Below are positions 4,855 to 61,375 of a DNA stretch of 64,000 nucleotides, in pieces. The position numbers and the translations under genes were made by a program. Source of the stretch: Podarcis liolepis (Eukaryota); the NCBI GenBank assembly GCA_965112155.1, contig OZ218103.1; one strand, written 5' to 3'. The number at the start of each line of letters is the position of its first letter. Positions within the stretch are counted from its first letter, which is position 1. The notes below the pieces were generated by a model. That model saw only the letters and a program-made list of their open reading frames with translations. It searched no databases and was not told the origin of the DNA.

Positions 4855-5162
4855 GGGACACAGGTGGCGCTGTGGGTTAAACCACAGAGCCTAGGACTTG
4901 CCGATCAGAAGGTCAGCGGTTCGAATCCCTGCGATGGGGTGAGCTCCCGTTGCTCGGTCCCTGCTCCTGCCAACCTAGCAGTTCGAAAGCACATCAAATT
5001 GCAAGTAGATAAATAGGTACCGCTCCGGCGGGAAGGTAAACGGCGTTTCCGTCCGCTGCTCTGTACGCCGGCTCCCTCGGCCACTAAAGCAAGATGAGTG
5101 CCGCAACCCCAGAGTTGGTCGCGACTGGACCTAATGATCAGGGGTCCCTTTACCTTTACCTT
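4855..5162 (+). mobile_element. Sauria SINE (Squam1) with an internal deletion
   Basis: Head gggacacaggtggcgctgtgggttaaacc, B-box ggttcgaatccc, (ACCTTT)n tail. TSD tatgtgttctgtt at 4842-4854 and 5163-5175. Confidence 0.92.
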
Positions 5163-5523
5163 TATGTGTTCTGTTGCAGATTGGCTGCTGTGATGTTGTA
5201 ATTCTACTTGGGTGTTGTGCTAGTCCTGGTGTCAGCAACCTTTTTCAGACGTGGGCTGGTCCACCATCCCTCAGACCATGTGGTGGACCGGACTATATTT
5301 TTGGGGGGAAATGAACGAATTCCTATGCCCCACAAATAACCCAGAGATGCGCTTTAAATAAAAGGACACATTCTACTCATGTAAAAACACCAGGCAGGCC
5401 CAAAAATAACCCAGAGATGCATTTTAAATAAAAGGACACATTCTAATGTAAAAGCATGCTGATTCCCAGACCATCCGCAGGCTGGATTTAGAAGGTGATT
5501 GGGCCTTAGTTTGCCTACCCATG

Positions 5524-5861
5524 CTTATGACGAACAGCTGAGGGAGTTGGGCATGTGTAGCCTGGTAAAGAGGAAACTGAGTGGAGCTATGATAGTCATC
5601 TTCAAATATCTAAAGGGCTATCAAATGAAGGTGGAGCAACCTTGTTTTCTCCCCCTCAGGAGGGTATGACCTGAACCAATAGCTTAAAGTTACAAGAAAG
5701 TGATTCTGACTAAACATCAGAAAGAACTTTCTGACAACGAGAGCTGTTCAACAGTGAACAAACTTCCTTAGGAGGTGGTGGACTCTCCTTCATTGGAAGT
5801 TTTAAAGCAGAGGTTGGATGGCCATCTGTCATGGATGCTTTAGTTGAGATTCCTGATTGCA
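5524..5861 (+). mobile_element. CR1 LINE 3' fragment (end of ORF2 and part of the 3' UTR)
   Basis: Closely parallels the CR1 at 36105-36604 (atgatagtcatcttcaaatatctaaagggc; tttaaagcagaggttggatgg). Confidence 0.88.
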
Positions 5862-6018
5862 AGTAGATAAACAGGTACCACTCCAGCGGGAAGGTAAACG
5901 GCATTTCCGTGCGCTGCTCTGTACGCCGGCTCCCTCGGCCACTAAAGCGAGATGAGTGCCGCAACCCCAGAGTTGGTCACGACTGGACCTAATGATCAGG
6001 GGTCCCTTTACCTTTACC
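5856..6018 (+). mobile_element. Sauria SINE 3' half
   Basis: About 160 bp nearly identical to 4998-5160, with the (ACCTTT) tail. Confidence 0.9.
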
Positions 6019-6066
6019 CACGGGCCTTAGGTTGCCTACCCCTGTGCTAGTCCATGCTTTGCAATC

Positions 6067-7492: not shown

Positions 7493-9136
7493 CTGCTAAA
7501 AAATGTTAAGACATCAGTAGCCTGTAAATAATAATGTTTTCTCTAATAACTGTATTGATGAGTGGATGCTATTGGGACGCTCTTGTTTTTTACTGCACGG
7601 CATAGAGAACATGGGAAAGAGTGTTTTGAAACCCTGAAACTCTATATCTTCCCAGGTTGTGAACATCTGCACTAGAGTATCCTCGGGCTAAAAGTGGCAT
7701 TAACATTTGTGTTTCACCCAAAGAATGGGACTATTTAAATTCATGGGTTTGGGGGGGGGGGCTGGCGGCTTGTTTTTGACTCAGACACCTCAAGCTAATA
7801 CACCCAGTCTGAACTGTGAGTCTTAAACAGATGACAGAAAATGAATTATTTCTTTGGACCCTGGGGGACCGTCTGTAATAGAACAAGGTTTGCACAATTT
7901 ATTCCTGGATAAAGAAATACCTCCTTTTATCTTCCTTTCTATTTTTCCGGTTCGCTGCCAAAATTGCCTCTATAATATATAATTTTTTTAATTTAAAAAT
8001 TCATTTTCATTTTTCAAGACATAGGGAGCTCACCACCAGATAAGGAGCTCCATCTGTCTTGAAGAAAAAGGATACAGGATTTTTGTGTCACTAATCCGGT
8101 AACGTCTTAAATGATTGTGCCACTTAGAAATGCTTTCTTCATATTTATGAAATGATTATTTGACAGAGAGAGACATTTAATATTGTTAAAATAATTACTG
8201 TGCCAGTTTAATACATCAGTTTGAATTGTTATCAGGCAAACTATGAAATGTGGGATAATTTCATAAATAATTATAAAGCCTTTTACGAAATGGCACCTTA
8301 ATGCAAAGCATTGTTGCTAATCCTTTTTTTTATTCACAAACACAGAAATAACAATTAGATTTATGAAATGAAGAAGGGCTGTATGTGGCACAAGAGAGAG
8401 TAGGCAAGAGTACAAGGCTGGAGTCCATCTTCTACTACATGTAAATCTCACCACTGGGAGAAAGGAAGCATCAGACCTTAAACTAATGTCCATCACCTTG
8501 TTTTTCAATACATAGATTTTTATATCACAGTTTGCCTGCAGCTTTACTGAGATCCAGCTGAGATTCTGTTTCTCTAGAAGTTAAAAAAAAACAAAACAAA
8601 AAGCCATTCTCAAGTTTTTTATGGATGGCTGCTCTGACTTCAACAGATATGTGACATTATCCAGTGCACTCTCATTCATAGTGACCTTTTACTAGCTATT
8701 TTTAGGGGAAACTACACAACACTTTATAGTAGCTAGAAGGGAGTGGTTAGAAGGCTGCCTTGATATGAAACCATGTACAAATATTTTATAATGAAATGTT
8801 GACCACTCAGAGTAGTTTGTCCATATATTTTCACACCATGTATTGTAAAACAATAAAACATCATATAATTGATATTAACAGACTCACAACATAACAAAAT
8901 AAGTGAAGATGGCTCAGCACATGCAAATTTACTACCAATAAGAACTATCCCAAAATAAAAGGATTTTCAAAGCATGCTTTAAATGCATAGCCTGCATCCT
9001 AAGCACACTTAACTGAAGTTCAAGGAAGTAGAGTTTGCTATCCATTTCTCTACCCTATAACTATCTGCAACCTCGGGGGGGGGGGGTCAGAGGGAATGTA
9101 TGGGGTGGGCTGCTGTGGGAAGGAAGGAACAAGAAA

Positions 9137-9295
9137 CAGGAGTGCCAACTTGGCCCCACAACCATGGGTTTCCAGAATTGTGGGTGCCATTCAGCATGCA
9201 TGGCCCTGGCACAAAAAATTATAGATGCCCGGACACTTCATGGGGAATTTTGTGGGTGCTTGAGCACCCAGGGCCCCAGGGAGTTGGTGCCTATG
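9137..9295. mobile_element. hAT MITE (CAGGRGTGCCAACT family)
   Basis: Ends caggagtgccaact / agttggtgcctatg. Similar to 13680-13794. Degenerate 8-bp TSD acaagaaa / acagggaa. Confidence 0.7.
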
Positions 9296-10111
9296 ACAGG
9301 GAATATTCCTTCTGTAAATGCCCTTATCTTGGGATCCTAGACATAGAGAACAATGAAGCCTTCAGAACCAAGCAGCACCCTAACTTGAAACTGTAATCAA
9401 ATTGATATTGTCTTTGGACAATGGTTCAAGCTTTCCACCCCCACCCCCACCCCCGGGATGGTATAGGAGGTGGGAGCTGAGTGATTTCAGCATACTGGGC
9501 GGCCCTTCGGACCAATGGCTTCATGTAGATTTCAAAAAGCATGGGTGACAAAATGGAACCCTGCAGTACCCCATAGGCAAAAGGTCATGGGGGCAGAGTA
9601 CCATTCTCTCAGTATAAACTTCATGGGTCAATGCTTCAGGAAGTGTCAGAGCCACCAGAGCTGATTTCATTTGCTGCCCGGAAGTAAGAGCAGAGAAGCT
9701 CTCTTGACCTCCTTTCTCCATTTTTACTTTTGTTTTTCAAAAACTATTTCCCTCCCATTGGAAACATTAGGAGGGAAATGAATGGGATTTATTTATGCCA
9801 CCACCTGGGATGATGTAATTTTTTTCTGGGTTTGAGGGCATGTTGGAGGACCAGGAAGGTATTAGATCCTTCATATCAAGCCTTCCTCTAGTTCTCTGCC
9901 TACATGCACCCAAACCTCCTCTGACATAGCCTGCATCCTAAGCGCACTTAACTGAAGTTCAAGGAAGTAGAACTTCCTTAACTGAAGTTGAAGGAAGCAC
10001 CTTTCTGGTGCTACATCACTGCTACAGTGTCAGTAGGGCCAGGGGCATGAAAGTTTCCACAGTGGAGGAGAGGGGGAAGTTGACATTAAATCTTCCTCTC
10101 CTACATCAGAT

Positions 10112-23364: not shown

Positions 23365-23964
23365 CAGAGGTTTTCAACCTTTTTGAGTCCACGGCTCCCT
23401 TGACCAACTATGGCACCCCCATGGGACTCAGGAGCCCAGTTATGTCACCCCCTGCCTGCAGAGCCGGCAGCCTCTTACCCTTTTCGAAAACCGCCCCCTT
23501 GTGGAGTGTTCCCTCAGCTTCCTCTCCTCTCTGCTCTCCTTGGGAGTCCTCCAGGCAGCTGCTGCTGCCATCCCTGGTCTCTGAGCTGCCCTCCCCCCTG
23601 CCCCAAAGTGATGTGCCCTCCCCCCTACCCCACAGGGCCCTGGGACTTGTCTGTCCATTCCCAACAGCCAGGACTGGTGGACTAGTTGGCTTGGCTGCCT
23701 TACCCCCTTGCTTGCTTACTCTGAGGCCCCCTCAGCTCCTGGCAACCAGCACCCCCTGACCAGGGGCATCGTTCGCCTGTGGAGCTTGTAGCCAGGGCCT
23801 CTGCAACAAACAGCTGTGTGCAAGCCTTTGAGAGGCAGAGATGCAAGAGGACATCAGAGGATGGAGGGAAGGAAAGAGGGACAGAGGCCAGTGTTGCCCG
23901 CGTGACCCCTGACCATCCTTCAAGGAACCCCAGGGTGCCGTGGCACGCTGGTTGAAAACCACTG
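23365..23964. mobile_element. Non-autonomous hAT element, 600 bp
   Basis: TIRs cagaggttttcaacc / ggttgaaaaccactg. TSD cactaggg / cactaggt. Confidence 0.88.
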
Positions 23965-24084
23965 CACTAGGTAGCAAAAACTGGTCCTGCAGCCAAGGGA
24001 GATGGAGGAAGCGGCTTTGATTCATAGTGCTTTGCATTCAAACTTCTTCCTCAGGCAAGAGAGAGAAAATGCTCTATTTGAATG

Positions 24085-24177
24085 CCATAATCCTATGGAT
24101 ATTCACTTGGGAATAAAATCCATTGAAAATTGTGAACATTATTTCTGAGTAAACATGCATAGTAGGATTGCACTGTA
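24085..24177. mobile_element. Ancient palindromic ~90-bp MITE-like repeat
   Basis: aatcctatg...taggattgcactgta. Related copies at ~1-80, 21830-21920, 46780-46828 and 50328-50810. Confidence 0.55.
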
Positions 24178-25383
24178 AAAGTGATCTAGTTTTAACCATT
24201 AAATATTTTTTTTGTTTGCATCTATGCAAGAAAGAAGAGGAATATTTTGATGGGTTGGATTAATGGCTTTTAATGGACTGAGTTGAACCGGGGATTTTTT
24301 ATTCTAATATGTGCTATTTGGCTGAATAACAGCAATGATAATTTTCTTTACACCTTATTCATCTATTCATTTCAAAAGCTATTGACAATGTTGTTGCAAG
24401 CTGTTCAAAATGTTTCTTGTGGCTTCCAGTTTTAAAATGAACTATTTGACAAGAGTGGAGTTGTCCAAGTTTGTATCCTAGCATGCCATGTTCAATTTAA
24501 AACAGCAAACCTATTATACCTTCTACAGTTCGGAACAGAACATTTAATTGCCCTCTTGATTTTGTTGTTATCTGATTTGGGAAGTTTGATTTTATTTCCC
24601 AAGCTTGCAAGACTGTGCAGTCTTAATTTAATCTGCTTTCACTTTTTACTAAGGAGAGAGCTCAGCATTCCCCCCTGCCCCCAGATTCAACTGCAAAGTA
24701 GTTGATCCATTGTCTGCTTCAGCCAGTGGGGAAGAGAGAAGTAAGGAGATGAATGGAAGCAGCCGGGGCAGTGTGTGCACAAGCAGCTGCTGCAGAGAGT
24801 TCTGCCACAGTCTTCTTATTCCTTGCTTGCTATTAACATTTCTTATTGAATTTACTGGAAGCCAGAATCACACACCAGATATAGGGGTGGCTTCCTTCCT
24901 TCCTTCCTTCCTTCTGTTCTTTCTTTCTCTAAATAGGGAAGCATATAACTTTAGTACCCTTTGTTTCTGCTGGTATTAAAATTTGCTTTTGAAGGTGAGA
25001 GAGCCCTTTTCTCCTTCTGCTTCCAAGAGTTTGTGATGTGCAAAACAGAAAATCCCCTGACATCTAGGACAGTCCTAGTTGTGAATATGCTGCACACCCT
25101 GCTCCATCTTAAGTTCTCATCCCCAGTAGTGATAGTACTCTGATCTTTGTGCAACACATAAACAGTCTAATAGCAGCAAAGCATATTAATCATTTTTTTC
25201 TGATTCAGTGCACGAATCATAGAGTAAGAAGGGTCCCTAAGGGTCACAGGAGCCAACCGAGGTCCCTTGGGAGCACCCAATAAAATATTTTAGGGGGCTG
25301 CCATTTGACATTTCCCCATGCGCTTTGCATTCCTTGGAGCAGGGGTGGATTAACCATTAAGCAAAACAAGCATGTGCTTAGGG

Positions 25384-25900
25384 CAGAGGCTTTTGACCTT
25401 TTTGAGTCCACAGCTCCCTTGACCAACTACATTCTTTCTGCAGCACCCCTGTGGGGCTCAGGGGCCCAGTTATGCCACCCCTTGCCTACAAAGCTGGCAG
25501 CCTCTCGCCCTTTTTCGAATACCCTTCCTTGTGGAGTGTTCCCTCAGCTTCCTCTCCCCTCCCCTTCCCTTGGGAATCCTCTGGGCAGCAGCCACCACCG
25601 CCCCGGCCTTTGAGCTGTGCTACCTGCCCCAAAAAGAGGTGCCTGCTCACACTGCCCCACAGGGGCCTGGGAAGACAATGCCCAAAACTATACACACAAC
25701 GGAAGTTAGAGAGAAGCAAAAACTATACACACAACGGAAGTTCCCAGCAGACTGTGCTGATATGTAAACAGACATGTGACATGCAATAGTTCCATGTCTG
25801 CAACTACAGGTGGAATGGAATTTTCCAACAGTGCCTGCCTGCCTGCCTGCCTTCCTGGCCTCCCACTTGTCTGTCCATTCCCACCACCAGGGGTGTGCGG
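25384..25900. mobile_element. Second, rearranged copy of the 23365 hAT family (left part; right TIR not seen)
   Basis: The first ~250 bp are collinear with 23365-23620. It carries an extra segment with two copies of aaaactatacacacaacggaagtt. The right boundary is uncertain. Confidence 0.7.
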
Positions 25901-53535: not shown

Positions 53536-54723
53536 TACTGTACAAACTGGCAACCCCCTGATTGGTCTACAATAAAGTTGCCGCCATCTGGAAAGATTTC
53601 ACTGCTATGGAACACATGTGCTCAGGAAACCAATACTCTCAGATATCTGGATGTAGATATATTACATAGTTGTTAGATAAAGAATCCAGAAAAGAGACAT
53701 AACATTAAAGTTGTGTGGAATAGCTCCAGTCCTTACAATGTGAGTGAATCAGTGGACAAACATTTGAGAAAGACCACAAAAAAACAAAAGGCCCAGACAA
53801 AATATCTGATGATCCTACAGCAATCTCTCAAACAGGCAGTTTAGGAAAGGAAAGAGAAAGTGTATGACATGATTTGATAAGGGTTGGTTTCAAACAGGCT
53901 CAAACAACATACATCCGGTGGGCAGATTGTGGTCCTTGGGGGAATTTCAACTTTGGTCTACCATCTCTTTAAAACTGGAAGCTGCTGAGAGCACAGATGC
54001 AAATTGCATCTCTCTCTGCATCTCTCTCAGCGTTTCAGACACATATGGAAACAGGTGCAGCAGTAGAACAAACTTTTACCCTGACTGCAGCTGTGCAAAA
54101 CAAACACAATTTGGTTATAGAGGGCCAATTGGTTTACTCCTGTTTTCTCTCCTTTGTGAAAGAGAGTTCCTTCTTGCTGCGGGGTGGCCTTGGGGAGTAA
54201 AGAAGGCAATAAGACTTTGGGATGAGACAGGCTTGACATTTCTTTTTCCTTTTCTTTTTCTTTTTTTAAAGGAAGATCAGTATTACTTTGATCACTGGAA
54301 TGGGATGCAGGGCAAATGTTCTGGTTTTCTTTCTTTCTTTATCTTAAAGAAGGTATTTTCTGCATCTAGGGTAAAGAAGCTAAGTGAAAGTAAAATAAGG
54401 TTCTAATGCTGTTTATTTAACAAGACTGATCAAGCAGTTACCCTTTGGCTGAGATTGCTTCCACACAACTCGTTTTCTCCAGAACTGACATAATTTGTTC
54501 ACTGCCAGTGCTTCCAGACAGCAATTTATTGTGGAATCAGCACATGTAAGTTTTGTTGTTGTTGTTGTTTGCAATGGCCACACATCATTGTCTTCAAAAT
54601 ACCAGCCTGTATTCTGTCCCCACCTGTAATCCATATTTACATAGGTGGCTACGAGCCACCTATATAGAAGCAGCCACTGACCAATATCCTCTAGGAGCTG
54701 GTAGGAAAGTTGCTAGAAAATTA

Positions 54724-56503
54724 GACTTCCGGGTTGGCGCCATCGCCGAATGGCGGACTCCCTCCGAGCTCCGGAGGGAGTCTGCTCGGCAGGGGCTGGG
54801 TCCTACTGCGCCGGCGACGCGGGGACCCTTAAAAACCACGGGCACGGAGCCCGTGGACATGGGTGACTCGGCTGGCACCATTAGCGCCCTCCTGACTCGT
54901 GAAGGAGCCTTTTTAAAGGCTACGGATCGGGTGCCGGGGAGTGGCGTGGTGCTGTGAGTCCTCTGCTTTCCCTGCCGAGCGAAGTTGCATGCCATTCGAC
55001 GGAGAGCGCTGACTTCTTCTATTGAAAATTCGGACTTTCAACAACAACCCGTGAGTAATCTGGAAACCGGGTTTAAAAGGAGGGGGAATTTTTTTTTCGG
55101 ATTTGGCACGAGCGGGGGAGATCTAAAAAAGGAAGTCAGCCCCCCCCCATTGTAAACATTCTAAAACAAGGACTGGGTAACCAAGGACGAGAGAGAATTG
55201 TATTTTGAATAAAAATTATTAATTCCACGATGAGAAATTATAAGAACTGTGCTGGAGGAGAAGAGTGGAGGGTGAGAAGGAAAACGTAAACCCCCCCCCC
55301 CTGAGAACCGGGGCGATATGTGAGAGAGCCTGGTGAAGAGAGACAGAGACTTTGACAGCTGTCAAAGTAGCTGTCAAAGCTCGGAGAATATAAAGAGGAC
55401 TTCGCCATGAGGACTTTGCTGGTTAATTTTGTTACAATTTGTTACAATTTGGATATAAACTGTTGAAAATAAGGAATAACAATTTGACTTTTGGATTAGA
55501 GGAAACAAAGTTACTATAATCCCCCTAGAGGGGTTTCGGGACACTACAAGAACGGTCGTAAGTGGAAAAATACTCTTGGTATTGTACAGGACTTGTTATC
55601 TCCTGGGAAAGCTGCAAAACTGAAACAGTATTTCGTCTACAGAGGTGTTTACATTAAAGGAGACAATAGAATTTTTCTATTGAAGAAAGGAAGGGACTGG
55701 ACGTAAGTTTTTGTTCCTGAACAACAATAACCTCTGTAGAGGTACCAAATTTCTGAATTAGAACGTTTTAGCAGCGGAACAGGACAAGAAACCTGAGAAA
55801 GTAAGAAAAAAAGAACAAAGGACTGATTACGACATGGAAAGAACAATGGGGAGAGCGTTAAAGACCAAGGAAATTAAAGGCCCTTTGGGGCCTCTTTTAG
55901 ACTGGATGTTTGAAGTTAAATATTAGTAAAATAAATAAATTTAAAAAAAAAAAACCTGTAAGGTGGATCTGGGGAAAAATCTGGCTTGGATTTGAGATCT
56001 CCAGGCTGACAATAGATAGATTGATGGATATGGGGAATTCAAACCGGGGAAGGGGGGGGGAGACCTGGAATCCAAAGGCTGTGCAACTATCTTTTGAATC
56101 TTTTTATATCTTTTATCTTTTATATTTCTATGTAACTTCTTGTATATCATTTTATTTTGACTGGATGTGTTTATTAAAAAAGGGAATTCGTGGAAGGAAA
56201 CTGGGGCGGACCTTGGGGAAAAAACATTTTTTTTCTTTCTGTTAAGGATGAGGGATGATGGAATGATTGTACAATTTAAATTGAATAATGGGTTAAACAA
56301 ATTAAGTTTTAAATTGGGATTGAGAGCTTGTAGAACCAAATTAAGGAAAGGGGAGTACAATTGGGAGGGGGATGGGGGAGTCCCAGAAAGTTGGCAACGA
56401 AAGTAAGGTTTTAAGGGTATTGTATCTTTTTTTTTTCTTTTTTCTCTTTGTATTTCTATTTTTTGTGTTTTGGAAACTTTAATAAATATGATTTTTTTAA
56501 AAA
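54724..56503 (+). mobile_element. Non-autonomous L1-type retroposon, ~1.78 kb, apparently full length
   Basis: Perfect direct repeat aggaaagttgctagaaaatta(ga) at 54703 and 56504. CpG-rich 5' end gacttccgggttggcgccatc. G-rich then T-rich 3' end, AATAAA at 56481, T7A6 tail. No long sense ORF. Confidence 0.85.
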
Positions 56504-57021
56504 AGGAAAGTTGCTAGAAAATTAGAAAGTGCACAGAGAGCTCCTTGACTGCATGTGAGTGTGATTTCTATCACCTTCAGTTTTCTCTGCTTATTGATGA
56601 TGAACCCTTCCATATTCTCAACAAGCAGAGGTCTCATGTGGTGAGTGTAACATGTAGCCAGGCTCTCTAAGATGTTAACTTCTGGCCGTTCATAAGATGG
56701 TTTCCTTTCTGGGTGATCCATGTTTGTTACATGTGTACAAACTTAAACACATGGAACATGAATACTAGCTGCTGATATTCTAAGTGAATATTCAGTGCAT
56801 TTAAACTAAAACGCTCAGAAGAGACATTCAGACATTATTCCCCATTGCATGGATTGCCCCAAAGACGAAGAGCTTTCTGACAGTGACTGCAGTAAGTGAA
56901 TAATGTATAACAGAGGTATGTGTGGTATGAATCCCGGCTGTACAATAAGAAAATTTTCCTCAAATGTTCCTTCATAGCCTCAGAAAGGAGTGACTGAGCA
57001 ACTACAAGTTTTCTAACCTTG

Positions 57022-57340
57022 TGAAACATGGGAAGCTCCCTTATTCTGAGTTGAGACAATTGGTCCACCTTTCTCAGTGCTGTCAACATCAGGTGGGGGG
57101 AGCCAGTGGACTTCCAGGTGTTGCTGAACTACAACTCCCATCAGCATGGGAGCATGGCCCATGGGAGTTATAATTCAAGCACATCCGGAGTTCCAAAGGT
57201 TCCCCACACCTGGTCTTCTCTGGTGAGCCCTGGCTATCCAATGTTTCAGACAGGTGTCTTTCCTAGCCCTACCTGGAGATGCCAGGATTAAACCTGGGAA
57301 CTTCTGCATGCAGAGCAGATGCTCTACCACTGAATGCAGC
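57022..57340 (-). mobile_element. Squam2-like SINE with a nested short hAT MITE (57090-57212)
   Basis: Reverse head cagtggtagagcatctgctctgcatgcagaagttcccaggtttaatcc. Reverse tail ctcagaataagggagcttcccatg. Confidence 0.72.
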
Positions 57341-59982: not shown

Positions 59983-61375
59983 GTTTTATTTATTTAATTT
60001 TTCACCCCATCTTTTCTACAAAGAGCTCATAAGGCATATATATATTCTTCCATTTTGTCTTCACAACCATGATGAGGTGGATTAGGCTGAGACAGTGGCT
60101 GGGTCAACATCATCCAGTAAACTTCATGGCTGAGTAAGGATTTGAACTCGGGGGGCCACCAGGTGGCGCGTTGGAAGATGGCCGACAATAACATCTCTCT
60201 GACCCACATGAGGTAATTAAGGGGCTGCTATGGGAAGTATGCAGTCTTCCTACCCCCCCCCCAGGAGGTGGGGGGCGCTGCCTTGCCAGCGGTGTTCACA
60301 ATGCACCCCCTGATCCGAGAGATGGGGGTGCCGAACACTTGGCAACGAGCCCTCGGTGAAGTCAGATCTTCCTGACACCGATTCCAATTAGCGCGTGCTG
60401 GTTAGCTTCAGCTCGGAATTATAATTGGAAACATACGATTGGAACGAAGCTGAAGCACATATATCAAGTAATGTTCGAGAGATAAGACTGCTGAGTAATG
60501 GATCTCTGTGACCGGGAGTGACGGATGGATAAGTAAATCTTCTGATGAATCACCTCTAGGAGACTGTATGTTTGGAATGAAGGGGTGGGGGTGGGGGGGG
60601 ACTTTTTCTCCCTCTTTGCACGATGTGATATTAATAACCCTTCACCCCAGATAGAAATGAGATCGTTGCGTTTTTATTAATCACAAGCAGAAATTCAAGA
60701 ACTGTGTGGGATGGATTACAACAGGAGAGAGGATTGGTGAACGGTGAGAACAAGGAAAATTTTTATGACGCAGTTAAAAAATGGCGTCTCGCCAAGACAG
60801 GCTTGCCGGAGAAAGAAGGACAGGGGGAGGAGAATCAGGATTGTTTGAAAGAGAAGGAATGTTGGAACGCAAGTTTGTCCTAACAGAGCCTCCTGACTCA
60901 TTTGATTTATTTGGCAAGCCTGAGAAAAATAAAGGACAGACCGAAGATTAATTCTTTTTATGGAAGCGTTGAACAGAGGCTGTCCCTGGGCGATATGATC
61001 TTTGAAGAGTACAAAATCCACACAAGGATGCCTGCCAATCTGCTTGTGAAAATTATCAGAGATCGCAAAGAAAGGAATATACAATAACAACAAGAAGAGA
61101 AAGAAAGTAATAAAGGACTATCTGGATTGAACTGGATAGAACTGTCTAATTAAAGCAGTAATATAAGTGATGTTTGGACTCGTTCGGAGTTTTGGACTCA
61201 TGCGGCGCTTGATGTATGGGTACCCCCAACAAAATTTAAAATTTGGCTGTATAATTTGGAACTAATGTGATTTGGATAATGTGATGTGATTGGCCCGTTA
61301 ATAATTTTTTTTTTTTTAAAGAGTAAGGATTTGAACTCTGCCCTAAGTCCTACTCATTGCATCATGGTAGCTCTA
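59983..61375 (-). mobile_element. Old Squam3-like SINE (59983-60149 and 61321-61375) split by a retroposon
   Basis: Reverse B-box gagttcaaatcc. Reverse head agagctaccatgatgcaatg. Reverse tail with aaataaataaa. Confidence 0.65.
60150..61320 (+). mobile_element. Non-autonomous L1-type (HAL1-like) retroposon, 1171 bp
   Basis: Perfect 18-bp TSD gagtaaggatttgaactc (60132-60149, 61321-61338). G-run plus aagatggccg at the 5' end. A-rich body. aataa + T13A3 tail. Confidence 0.85.

Follow-up and report, generated by a model that had tools for sequence, protein, structure and literature searches.

The window analysed here is a 64,000-nucleotide (nt) stretch of contig OZ218103.1 from the lizard Podarcis liolepis (assembly GCA_965112155.1). 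On its plus strand, at 54724..56503, lies a full-length retroposon of 1,780 nt that has no intact open reading frame (ORF) and occurs in multiple copies in the genome. It is flanked by an exact 23-nt direct repeat, the target-site duplication (TSD), with plus-strand copies at 54703..54725 and 56504..56526. The last two bases of the upstream copy double as the first two of the element, so that the 21–23 nt given in the original prediction is the correct TSD length (21 nt, plus 2 nt shared with the start of the element). As in other copies, a T precedes the A-rich start at the 5′ junction. Other exact repeats of at least 20 nt within 8 kb of each other occur at four places in the window; the three inspected are pairs of longer dispersed repeats rather than TSDs.

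The 5′ end is intact and carries the motifs first described for it: the element opens with GACTTCCGG at 54724, followed by GCCATC at 54739 and AATGGCGG at 54749. We assume the opening to be ETS-like and the motifs to be YY1-like. The first 400 nt have 59% GC and an observed/expected (o/e) CpG ratio of 0.98, compared with 0.09–0.16 in the flanks and 0.23 in the whole window. This CpG island belongs to a head (54724..55170, plus strand) that is homologous to the 5′ untranslated region (UTR) of LINE-1 (L1) elements and is a candidate internal promoter for RNA polymerase II (Pol II). A conserved splice-donor-like GTGAGT (55051..55056, plus strand) and the terminal signals are also in place. The last part of the element (56311..56503, plus strand) is homologous to the L1 3′ UTR and contains AATAAA at 56481, after which come a run of T and a short tail (5–6 A). 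The longest plus-strand ORF that begins with ATG encodes 73 amino acids (aa). The earlier statement that there is no long ORF holds in this sense, but it misses a relic of a ~200-aa, probably ORF1-derived ORF at 55552..56009 (plus strand), which has ACG in place of ATG, a stop after 23 codons, an internal deletion and frameshifts. No tRNA was found in the element, an Rfam search gave no match near a gathering score, and TG...CA ends are absent from its termini.

A search of the lizard's own genome with the element, in which 40 of 2,966 candidates were scored, gave 44 matches, nearly all covering query positions ~22–1800 at 83–96% identity. The element is thus neither single-copy nor a one-off deletion. 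The copies begin at an identical base yet sit in differing flanks. In an alignment of 50 ORF-less copies (1,689–1,883 nt), 49 have their own exact TSD of 9–23 nt (median 16), as proposed for copies that share the 5′ end but were inserted independently. Left out of these 50 rows were interrupted or deleted copies (L028, L054, L059, L061, L070 and L093), one whose end had been set wrongly (L067) and its duplicate (L068); the last two are duplicates of one insertion. Target sites are biased: of the 49 copies, 29 have T at −2 and 28 have T at −1, 38 have A at +1, and 39 have A at +3. This T/A pattern is that of the L1 endonuclease, and TSDs of 9–23 nt, an A tail and the target bias together agree with L1.

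Two 20-mers of the clade, at positions 629 and 1457, have 113 and 62 exact genome matches and are present in 46/50 and 30/50 rows, respectively. Scaled accordingly, these counts give ~123 and ~103 copies, which indicates that few copies are 5′-truncated. By this rough estimate the family comprises ~100–125 copies, mostly full-length. Nearest-neighbour distances among copies are 1.4–6.1%, and divergence within the ORF-less clade reaches 22% across several subfamilies. The family thus appears to be recent, though not necessarily still active, as the description "young" implied, within the limit that the nearest copy differs from the window copy by 2.2%. Very short TSD-flanked forms of 316–761 nt also occur (L093, L094, L098 and L230), one of which (L098) is a 34-nt head fused to an L1-like 3′ end. 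Eleven sequencing-run rows under eight organism labels share 0.20–0.34 of the element's words, which is a lead only, and no RNA holder is listed.

The first 22 nt of the element have 116 exact matches in the genome. We examined 60 of these sites, and 23 more were already among the 44 family matches. The 60 comprise 28 members of the ORF-less clade (5 of them interrupted or deleted), 16 sister elements of 1.8–2.0 kb with a similar 5′ half, 9 L1s or L1 pieces, one separate 2.5-kb derivative and 6 sites with a short head only. The long (6-kb) elements that share the 22-mer encode ORF1, an endonuclease (PF03372, E 1.5e-13) and a reverse transcriptase (PF00078, E 1.3e-33), and their ORF2 matches human LINE-1 ORF2p at E 1.9e-87, compared with 3e-20 for R2. 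The element matches L1s in its first 334–449 nt (62–75%) and its last 70–190 nt (63–74%). At the 5′ head, identity is 65% over 1–446 to one L1 (L104) and 75% over 4–334 to another (L214); at the 3′ end, it is 63% over 1588–1780 to L216 (E 6e-12) and 74% over 1697–1766 to L085. Over the middle 1.2 kb, none of the tested L1s gave a DNA match. Judged by these similarities, the ends of the element are L1-derived. It retains 5′ and 3′ parts of L1 and has no coding capacity, as is typical of an ORF-absent bipartite non-autonomous LINE. The unmatched middle sets the element apart from the tested L1s, and the lack of TG...CA ends sets it apart from a long terminal repeat (LTR) element or endogenous retrovirus (ERV).

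Other L1 derivatives in the genome arose separately. Two elements of 2.5 kb (L080) and 2.2 kb (L074) lack ORF2 and have TSDs; in the latter, the start of ORF1 is joined in frame to the end of ORF2. The former was considered as an intermediate and ruled out, because its 5′ end groups inside the L1s. Five L1 loci on one contig (L191–L195, contig C20) carry one TSD and are duplicates of one insertion; a considerable fraction of the L1 and coding-sister matches falls on this contig.

The 1.8–2.0-kb sisters differ from the window family in that they encode a protein. Their ORF of ~165–230 aa begins near position 820, and a protein search of the genome found 182 matches, mostly open frames, in several subfamilies and down to 52% identity. 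The ratio of nonsynonymous to synonymous substitution rates (dN/dS) is 0.21–0.63 in all 78 pairs of 13 coding-sister ORFs (pairs that are not independent), and the bootstrap interval lies below 1 in 7/7 coding pairs tested. The short protein is under purifying selection in many subfamilies. Its origin may be traced to ORF1. When searched with a profile of the protein, 16 local ORF1 frames exceeded the threshold, mostly through two blocks and with a best E of 3.4e-6, compared with 0.44 for reversed-sequence controls. The similarity to L1 ORF1p is collinear, in two blocks of which one includes the C-terminal end, and a chain of DNA matches connects the 3′ end of the sisters' ORF with the 2.5-kb derivative L080 (E 4e-15), which in turn matches L104 at the 3′ end of ORF1 (E 1e-7). 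From this weak collinear similarity we infer that the short protein is a shrunken ORF1p, which would make the lineage HAL1-like. The local L1 ORF1p itself has no match in Pfam or PDB, and the Pfam Transposase_22 profile matched nothing in the genome, as did its control. The protein collection contains homologues of the short protein in the form of six unnamed Logan proteins and two hypothetical proteins of Podarcis lilfordi, a set that points to lacertid lizards.

The C-terminal end of the ~200-aa protein is almost invariant among the coding sisters L111–L160. At several sites that lie close to contig ends or on small contigs (genome G000: C1:23298, C3:125837979, C62, C99, C126 and C162), one and the same coding sister is found again with equal scores, a pattern that suggests subtelomeric duplication.

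The relic in the window element links the ORF-less copies to these sisters. Translated searches with 10 of 11 sister proteins find it (best E 5e-9). At the column of the start codon, all 11 coding rows have ATG, compared with ACG in 31, a deletion in 17, ACA in 1 and ATG in 1 of the 50 ORF-less copies. Across the same 50 copies the first stop falls within 23–55 codons in every case and the longest ATG ORF spans 32–110 aa; among 29 ORF-less copies no stop-free plus-strand frame exceeds 141 aa. Bootstrap intervals of dN/dS for the relic span 1 in 8/9 pairs. Substitutions are shared among the ORF-less copies, which shows that the changes are not assembly errors. In a tree built from the 5′ 470 nt and rooted on L1s, the ORF-less rows fall together in one clade (support 100/99) nested inside the coding rows. 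Each of the 200 bootstrap trees requires two changes for the coding rows, whose monophyly is rejected (approximately unbiased (AU) test, p 1.4e-9). Two basal ORF-less copies retain the full 600-nt span of the ORF region, and later copies have ~430–460 nt. The existence of a single nested clade indicates that the ORF was lost once and that source elements then produced new subfamilies; in other words, amplification continued after the loss. End branches measure 0.016–0.05 in the coding sisters and 0.007–0.04 in the ORF-less clade. On this evidence the window element descends from a protein-coding, HAL1-like lineage and not directly from a deletion of L1. The proposal of an internally deleted L1 parasite was right as to L1 derivation and non-autonomy. 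It does not hold as a one-step deletion, given the unmatched middle 1.2 kb and the coding HAL1-like ancestry.

The head is the part best conserved between ORF-less and coding elements, with identity to one coding sister of 80–90% over the first 500 nt and 46–68% from position 801 on. The core of the GACTTCCGG start recurs in coding subfamilies and in L1s that were not selected by that start. The CpG head is a likely internal Pol II promoter. The donor-like motif was inherited from L1: GT(G/A)AGT is kept in 47/50 ORF-less copies, in 11/11 coding sisters and in most L1s tested. A working donor at 55051 found no backing, as no splice joint from it was seen in four RNA runs of a related species, whose reads are mostly <95% alike to the element. 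The junctions of three shortened copies do not fall at this donor. Variants in the reads give no clear clade assignment: the best ORF-less copy carries 8/10 of them, and a coding copy 6. An upstream ATG in the motif that we take to be YY1-like (window 54750 onward) opens 38 codons in 25/50 copies and 68 in 15/50; the length of this ORF is not conserved across the 50 copies.

One motif appears specific to the short elements. The palindrome TGACAGCTGTCA (55353..55364, on neither strand in particular) is present in 49/50 ORF-less copies and 18/19 coding rows (10/11 plus 8/8), and is found in 0/12 L1 or L1-derived 5′ regions and 0/20 copies of a neighbouring, unrelated family (family B, below). 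It resembles what we presume to be a TGIF/PKNOX/MEIS homeodomain site. Around it, a hairpin-like palindrome with a third half-site (window 55342–55375) is maintained throughout the short lineage, with a pile-up of RNA reads from diverged relatives on this region.

We regard it as probable, with good confidence, that the window element belongs to a gene-less family nested in 1.8–2.0-kb, one-gene offshoots of LINE-1, likely transcribed from an L1-type head and likely inserted by L1 proteins in trans. The history would have begun with an L1 from which ORF2 and the greater part of the RNA-binding region of ORF1 disappeared. What remained would be a HAL1-like element encoding a mostly coiled-coil protein of ~200 aa, whose ORF1 origin is suggested by the weak collinear similarity. 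Purifying selection has maintained the short protein in many subfamilies; one branch lost its start codon, gained stops and later lost ~140 nt and more. This ORF-less branch kept yielding successive subfamilies with new TSDs. Mechanistically, the CpG head may provide a Pol II RNA that is polyadenylated at AATAAA; L1 ORF1p and ORF2p would bind this RNA, with target-primed reverse transcription at T/A-rich nicks. We infer mobilisation by L1 proteins in trans because of the TSD length, the target bias and the tail. L1 proteins prefer the RNA that encodes them, which is the supposed reason why HAL1-type elements retain ORF1.

Several observations weigh against this interpretation. The point values of relic dN/dS, 0.46–0.95 from pairs that are not independent, are also below 1. 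As regards the ORF1 origin, hhalign gives a probability of 6% for the short protein against ORF1p, the protein has no match to the ORF1 frames of three L1s (L213, L214 and L216) or to Pfam and PDB, and its AlphaFold model has a predicted local distance difference test (pLDDT) score of 40, with N-terminal helices only. As for the autonomous partner proposed at the outset, 6-kb L1s with ORF1, endonuclease and reverse transcriptase share the ends, but these ends are 63–75% alike, and no tested L1 is a close parent or stands out as the driver. The short lineage is sister to all sampled L1s. Among 32 L1 loci read, none combines a full 5′ head, ORF1 and a ~1,270-aa ORF2 frame; the nearest to complete has frames of 373 + 1,204 aa, and related L1s with ORF2 frames of 1,204–1,266 aa exist, none a close parent. 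Lastly, the RNA reads of a related species show no transcript start at the 5′ end of the element, and 58–66 reads per bulk run share one identical upstream flank, which points to read-through at one locus.

Alternatively, mobilisation could require two tiers of parasitism, in which the ORF-less clade depends on the sisters' short protein in trans as well as on L1 ORF2p, the short protein being a putative adaptor that co-assembles with L1 ORF1p. The coding sisters are more numerous (182 matches) and overlap the ORF-less clade in age, their protein is still under selection, and ORF-less and coding elements have in common the TGACAGCTGTCA palindrome that L1s lack. Counter to this, the available part of one report indicates that SVA, a long non-coding passenger, can use L1's own two proteins (PMC3287187). 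We consider the two-tier scheme a tentative possibility, clearly below mobilisation by L1 proteins. The short ORF and the body might instead be host or unknown sequence captured between L1 ends, making the element a composite retroposon unrelated to HAL1. The body has no direct DNA match to any tested L1, and the protein similarity is weak and partly coiled-coil. Such an origin seems unlikely in view of the two collinear blocks, including the C-terminal end, the reversed control and the DNA chain through the 2.5-kb derivative; moreover, the short ORF occupies the position of ORF1, and the homologues in the protein collection are limited to the six unnamed and two hypothetical proteins.

Less probable still are a one-step internal deletion of a current L1 and mobilisation by another LINE clade such as Tx1, RTE, CR1 or L2. 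Both ends are L1-like and one-off deletions are known in this genome (L074, L080, L093 and L098), but the body retains what is left of the sisters' ORF, and the sisters surround the clade in the tree. Formation by direct internal deletion of a partner LINE, as in SIDE-type elements, is therefore not what we find, and the 9–23-nt TSDs, A tail and T/A target bias agree with L1 as opposed to another LINE clade. That the family is dead sequence spread by segmental duplication, or consists of processed pseudogenes, solo LTRs or Pol III short interspersed elements (SINEs), has a negligible probability. A few loci are indeed duplicates of one insertion (L067/L068), but 49/50 copies have distinct flanks and TSDs, and subfamily structure is evident. 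LTR elements and ERVs have TG...CA ends and a 4–6-nt TSD, compared with a median TSD of 16 nt here. The original prediction had set the element apart from 5′-truncated LINEs and Pol III SINEs. This is supported, as is its distinction from LTRs and processed pseudogenes; the common start, the absence of a tRNA, 5S or 7SL head and the absence of TG...CA ends all agree.

Close to the element lies a second, unrelated retroposon of 1.16 kb (60150..61317, plus strand) with an 18-nt TSD, a member of family B, which has 45 genome matches and 60 exact matches of its 5′ 20-mer. The two had been proposed to form one class. The neighbour does represent a real TSD-flanked family, but it has no meaningful similarity to the window element's family or to tested L1s, and no autonomous partner was found in 20 further sites, all of which hold the same short element or altered copies; a common class would be an analogy. 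The guess that family B contains an ORF1 relic was unsupported by tblastn. Its copies (L031–L050 and L223–L242) are 1.15 kb long with a G-run start and a motif that we presume to be YY1-like, and a ~56-aa ATG ORF near position 625 is kept in most of 20 copies. One copy (L241) is interrupted by ~5 kb of inserted sequence that contains an open frame of 1,374 aa and may be an LTR-type element. Elsewhere in the window there is an inverted repeat like that of a miniature inverted-repeat transposable element (MITE) at 57085–57217, with 57-nt arms that are 74% complementary, and similar short dispersed repeats occur in pairs at 5030–6020, 8980–9990 and 23460–25590, the first pair ending in a SINE-like tandem tail.

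Full L1s, short-ORF elements and ORF-less elements, with near-identical promoter regions, coexist in this genome. Given these three states side by side, the need for ORF1p in cis, and the RNA features that might replace it, are directly testable. With respect to L1 ORF1p trimers, a half-size ORF1p that is under selection might play the part of adaptor or decoy. The genome contains >100 scattered full-length CpG-island heads of the clade, in addition to those of the sisters, and such copies may be mislabelled as L1 fragments or as hypothetical genes, of which the two Podarcis predictions could be examples. We lean, with modest confidence, towards a broader reading, namely that this is an undescribed lizard lineage in which the path from L1 to a non-coding parasite is preserved within one genome. 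The stages would be a 6-kb L1, a 1.9-kb element with ORF1 shrunk to a selected, ~200-aa coiled-coil adaptor without an RNA-binding fold, and a 1.75-kb ORF-less branch that diversified by >20%. No earlier ORF-less non-autonomous family would have been traced to L1 via a HAL1 stage, and the lineage would have gained its own homeodomain-type palindrome.

Our literature search found neither this family nor any other ORF-less family of L1 origin described from reptiles, within a scope that left aside Repbase, Dfam, most subscription papers and supplements; lacertid repeat libraries may hold a consensus. The accessible parts of PMC9099904, PMC3520738, PMC5203782 and PMC13756887 contain nothing on it. 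In the sections available of a 2018 review (PMC5786205), ORF-absent types are listed for RTE, Ingi, Vingi and R2 only, HAL1 is named as an ORF1-present L1 type, and the need to make ORF1p is held to exclude such elements as a source of non-coding SINEs. If true, our reading contradicts that published view that the need for ORF1p bars these elements from becoming non-coding (PMC5786205). A 2019 paper (PMC6740152), as far as its available text goes, calls non-LTR SIDEs rare and adds CR1 as a source, without naming L1.

We compared the family with known systems by their published descriptions, as given in the accessible portions of the sources cited. HAL1 of mammals (PMC5753468, PMC5786205) is likewise L1-derived, without ORF2, and has L1 ends, TSDs and an A tail; the coding sisters carry one ORF, possibly ORF1-related, under selection. 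In contrast to HAL1, the clade described here continued to amplify although it lacks an ORF, the protein of the sisters reaches roughly half the local ORF1p in length with no RNA-binding fold detected, and the host is a lizard. The ORF-less clade does not encode ORF1p and so is not filed as HAL1. SVA and LAVA of apes (PMC3287187) are similarly long, non-coding and mostly full-length, with L1-type insertion marks. They differ in that SVA is a composite of Alu-like, variable number tandem repeat (VNTR) and ERV parts, whereas in the window family both ends come from L1 and a VNTR is absent. Sadhu of Arabidopsis (PMC2848041) is also a moderate-copy non-autonomous retroposon with LINE-type target sites; these are plant elements, whereas in the lizard family L1 descent can be traced through a coding intermediate. 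The ORF-absent bipartite LINEs and SIDEs (RIME, NARTc, Bov-A, RTESINE, Vingi derivatives, R2 SIDEs and Persaeus; PMC5786205 and PMC6740152) resemble the family in joining LINE 5′ and 3′ parts, in being non-coding and in having a likely Pol II transcript mobilised in trans, which is predicted here. Like SIDEs, the family has amplified as a unit with independent TSDs (49/50) and subfamilies. It differs in its length (1.75 kb), in the decayed ORF it has kept and in its coding intermediate. The element would work like an ORF-absent bipartite LINE, and descends from a HAL1-like element.

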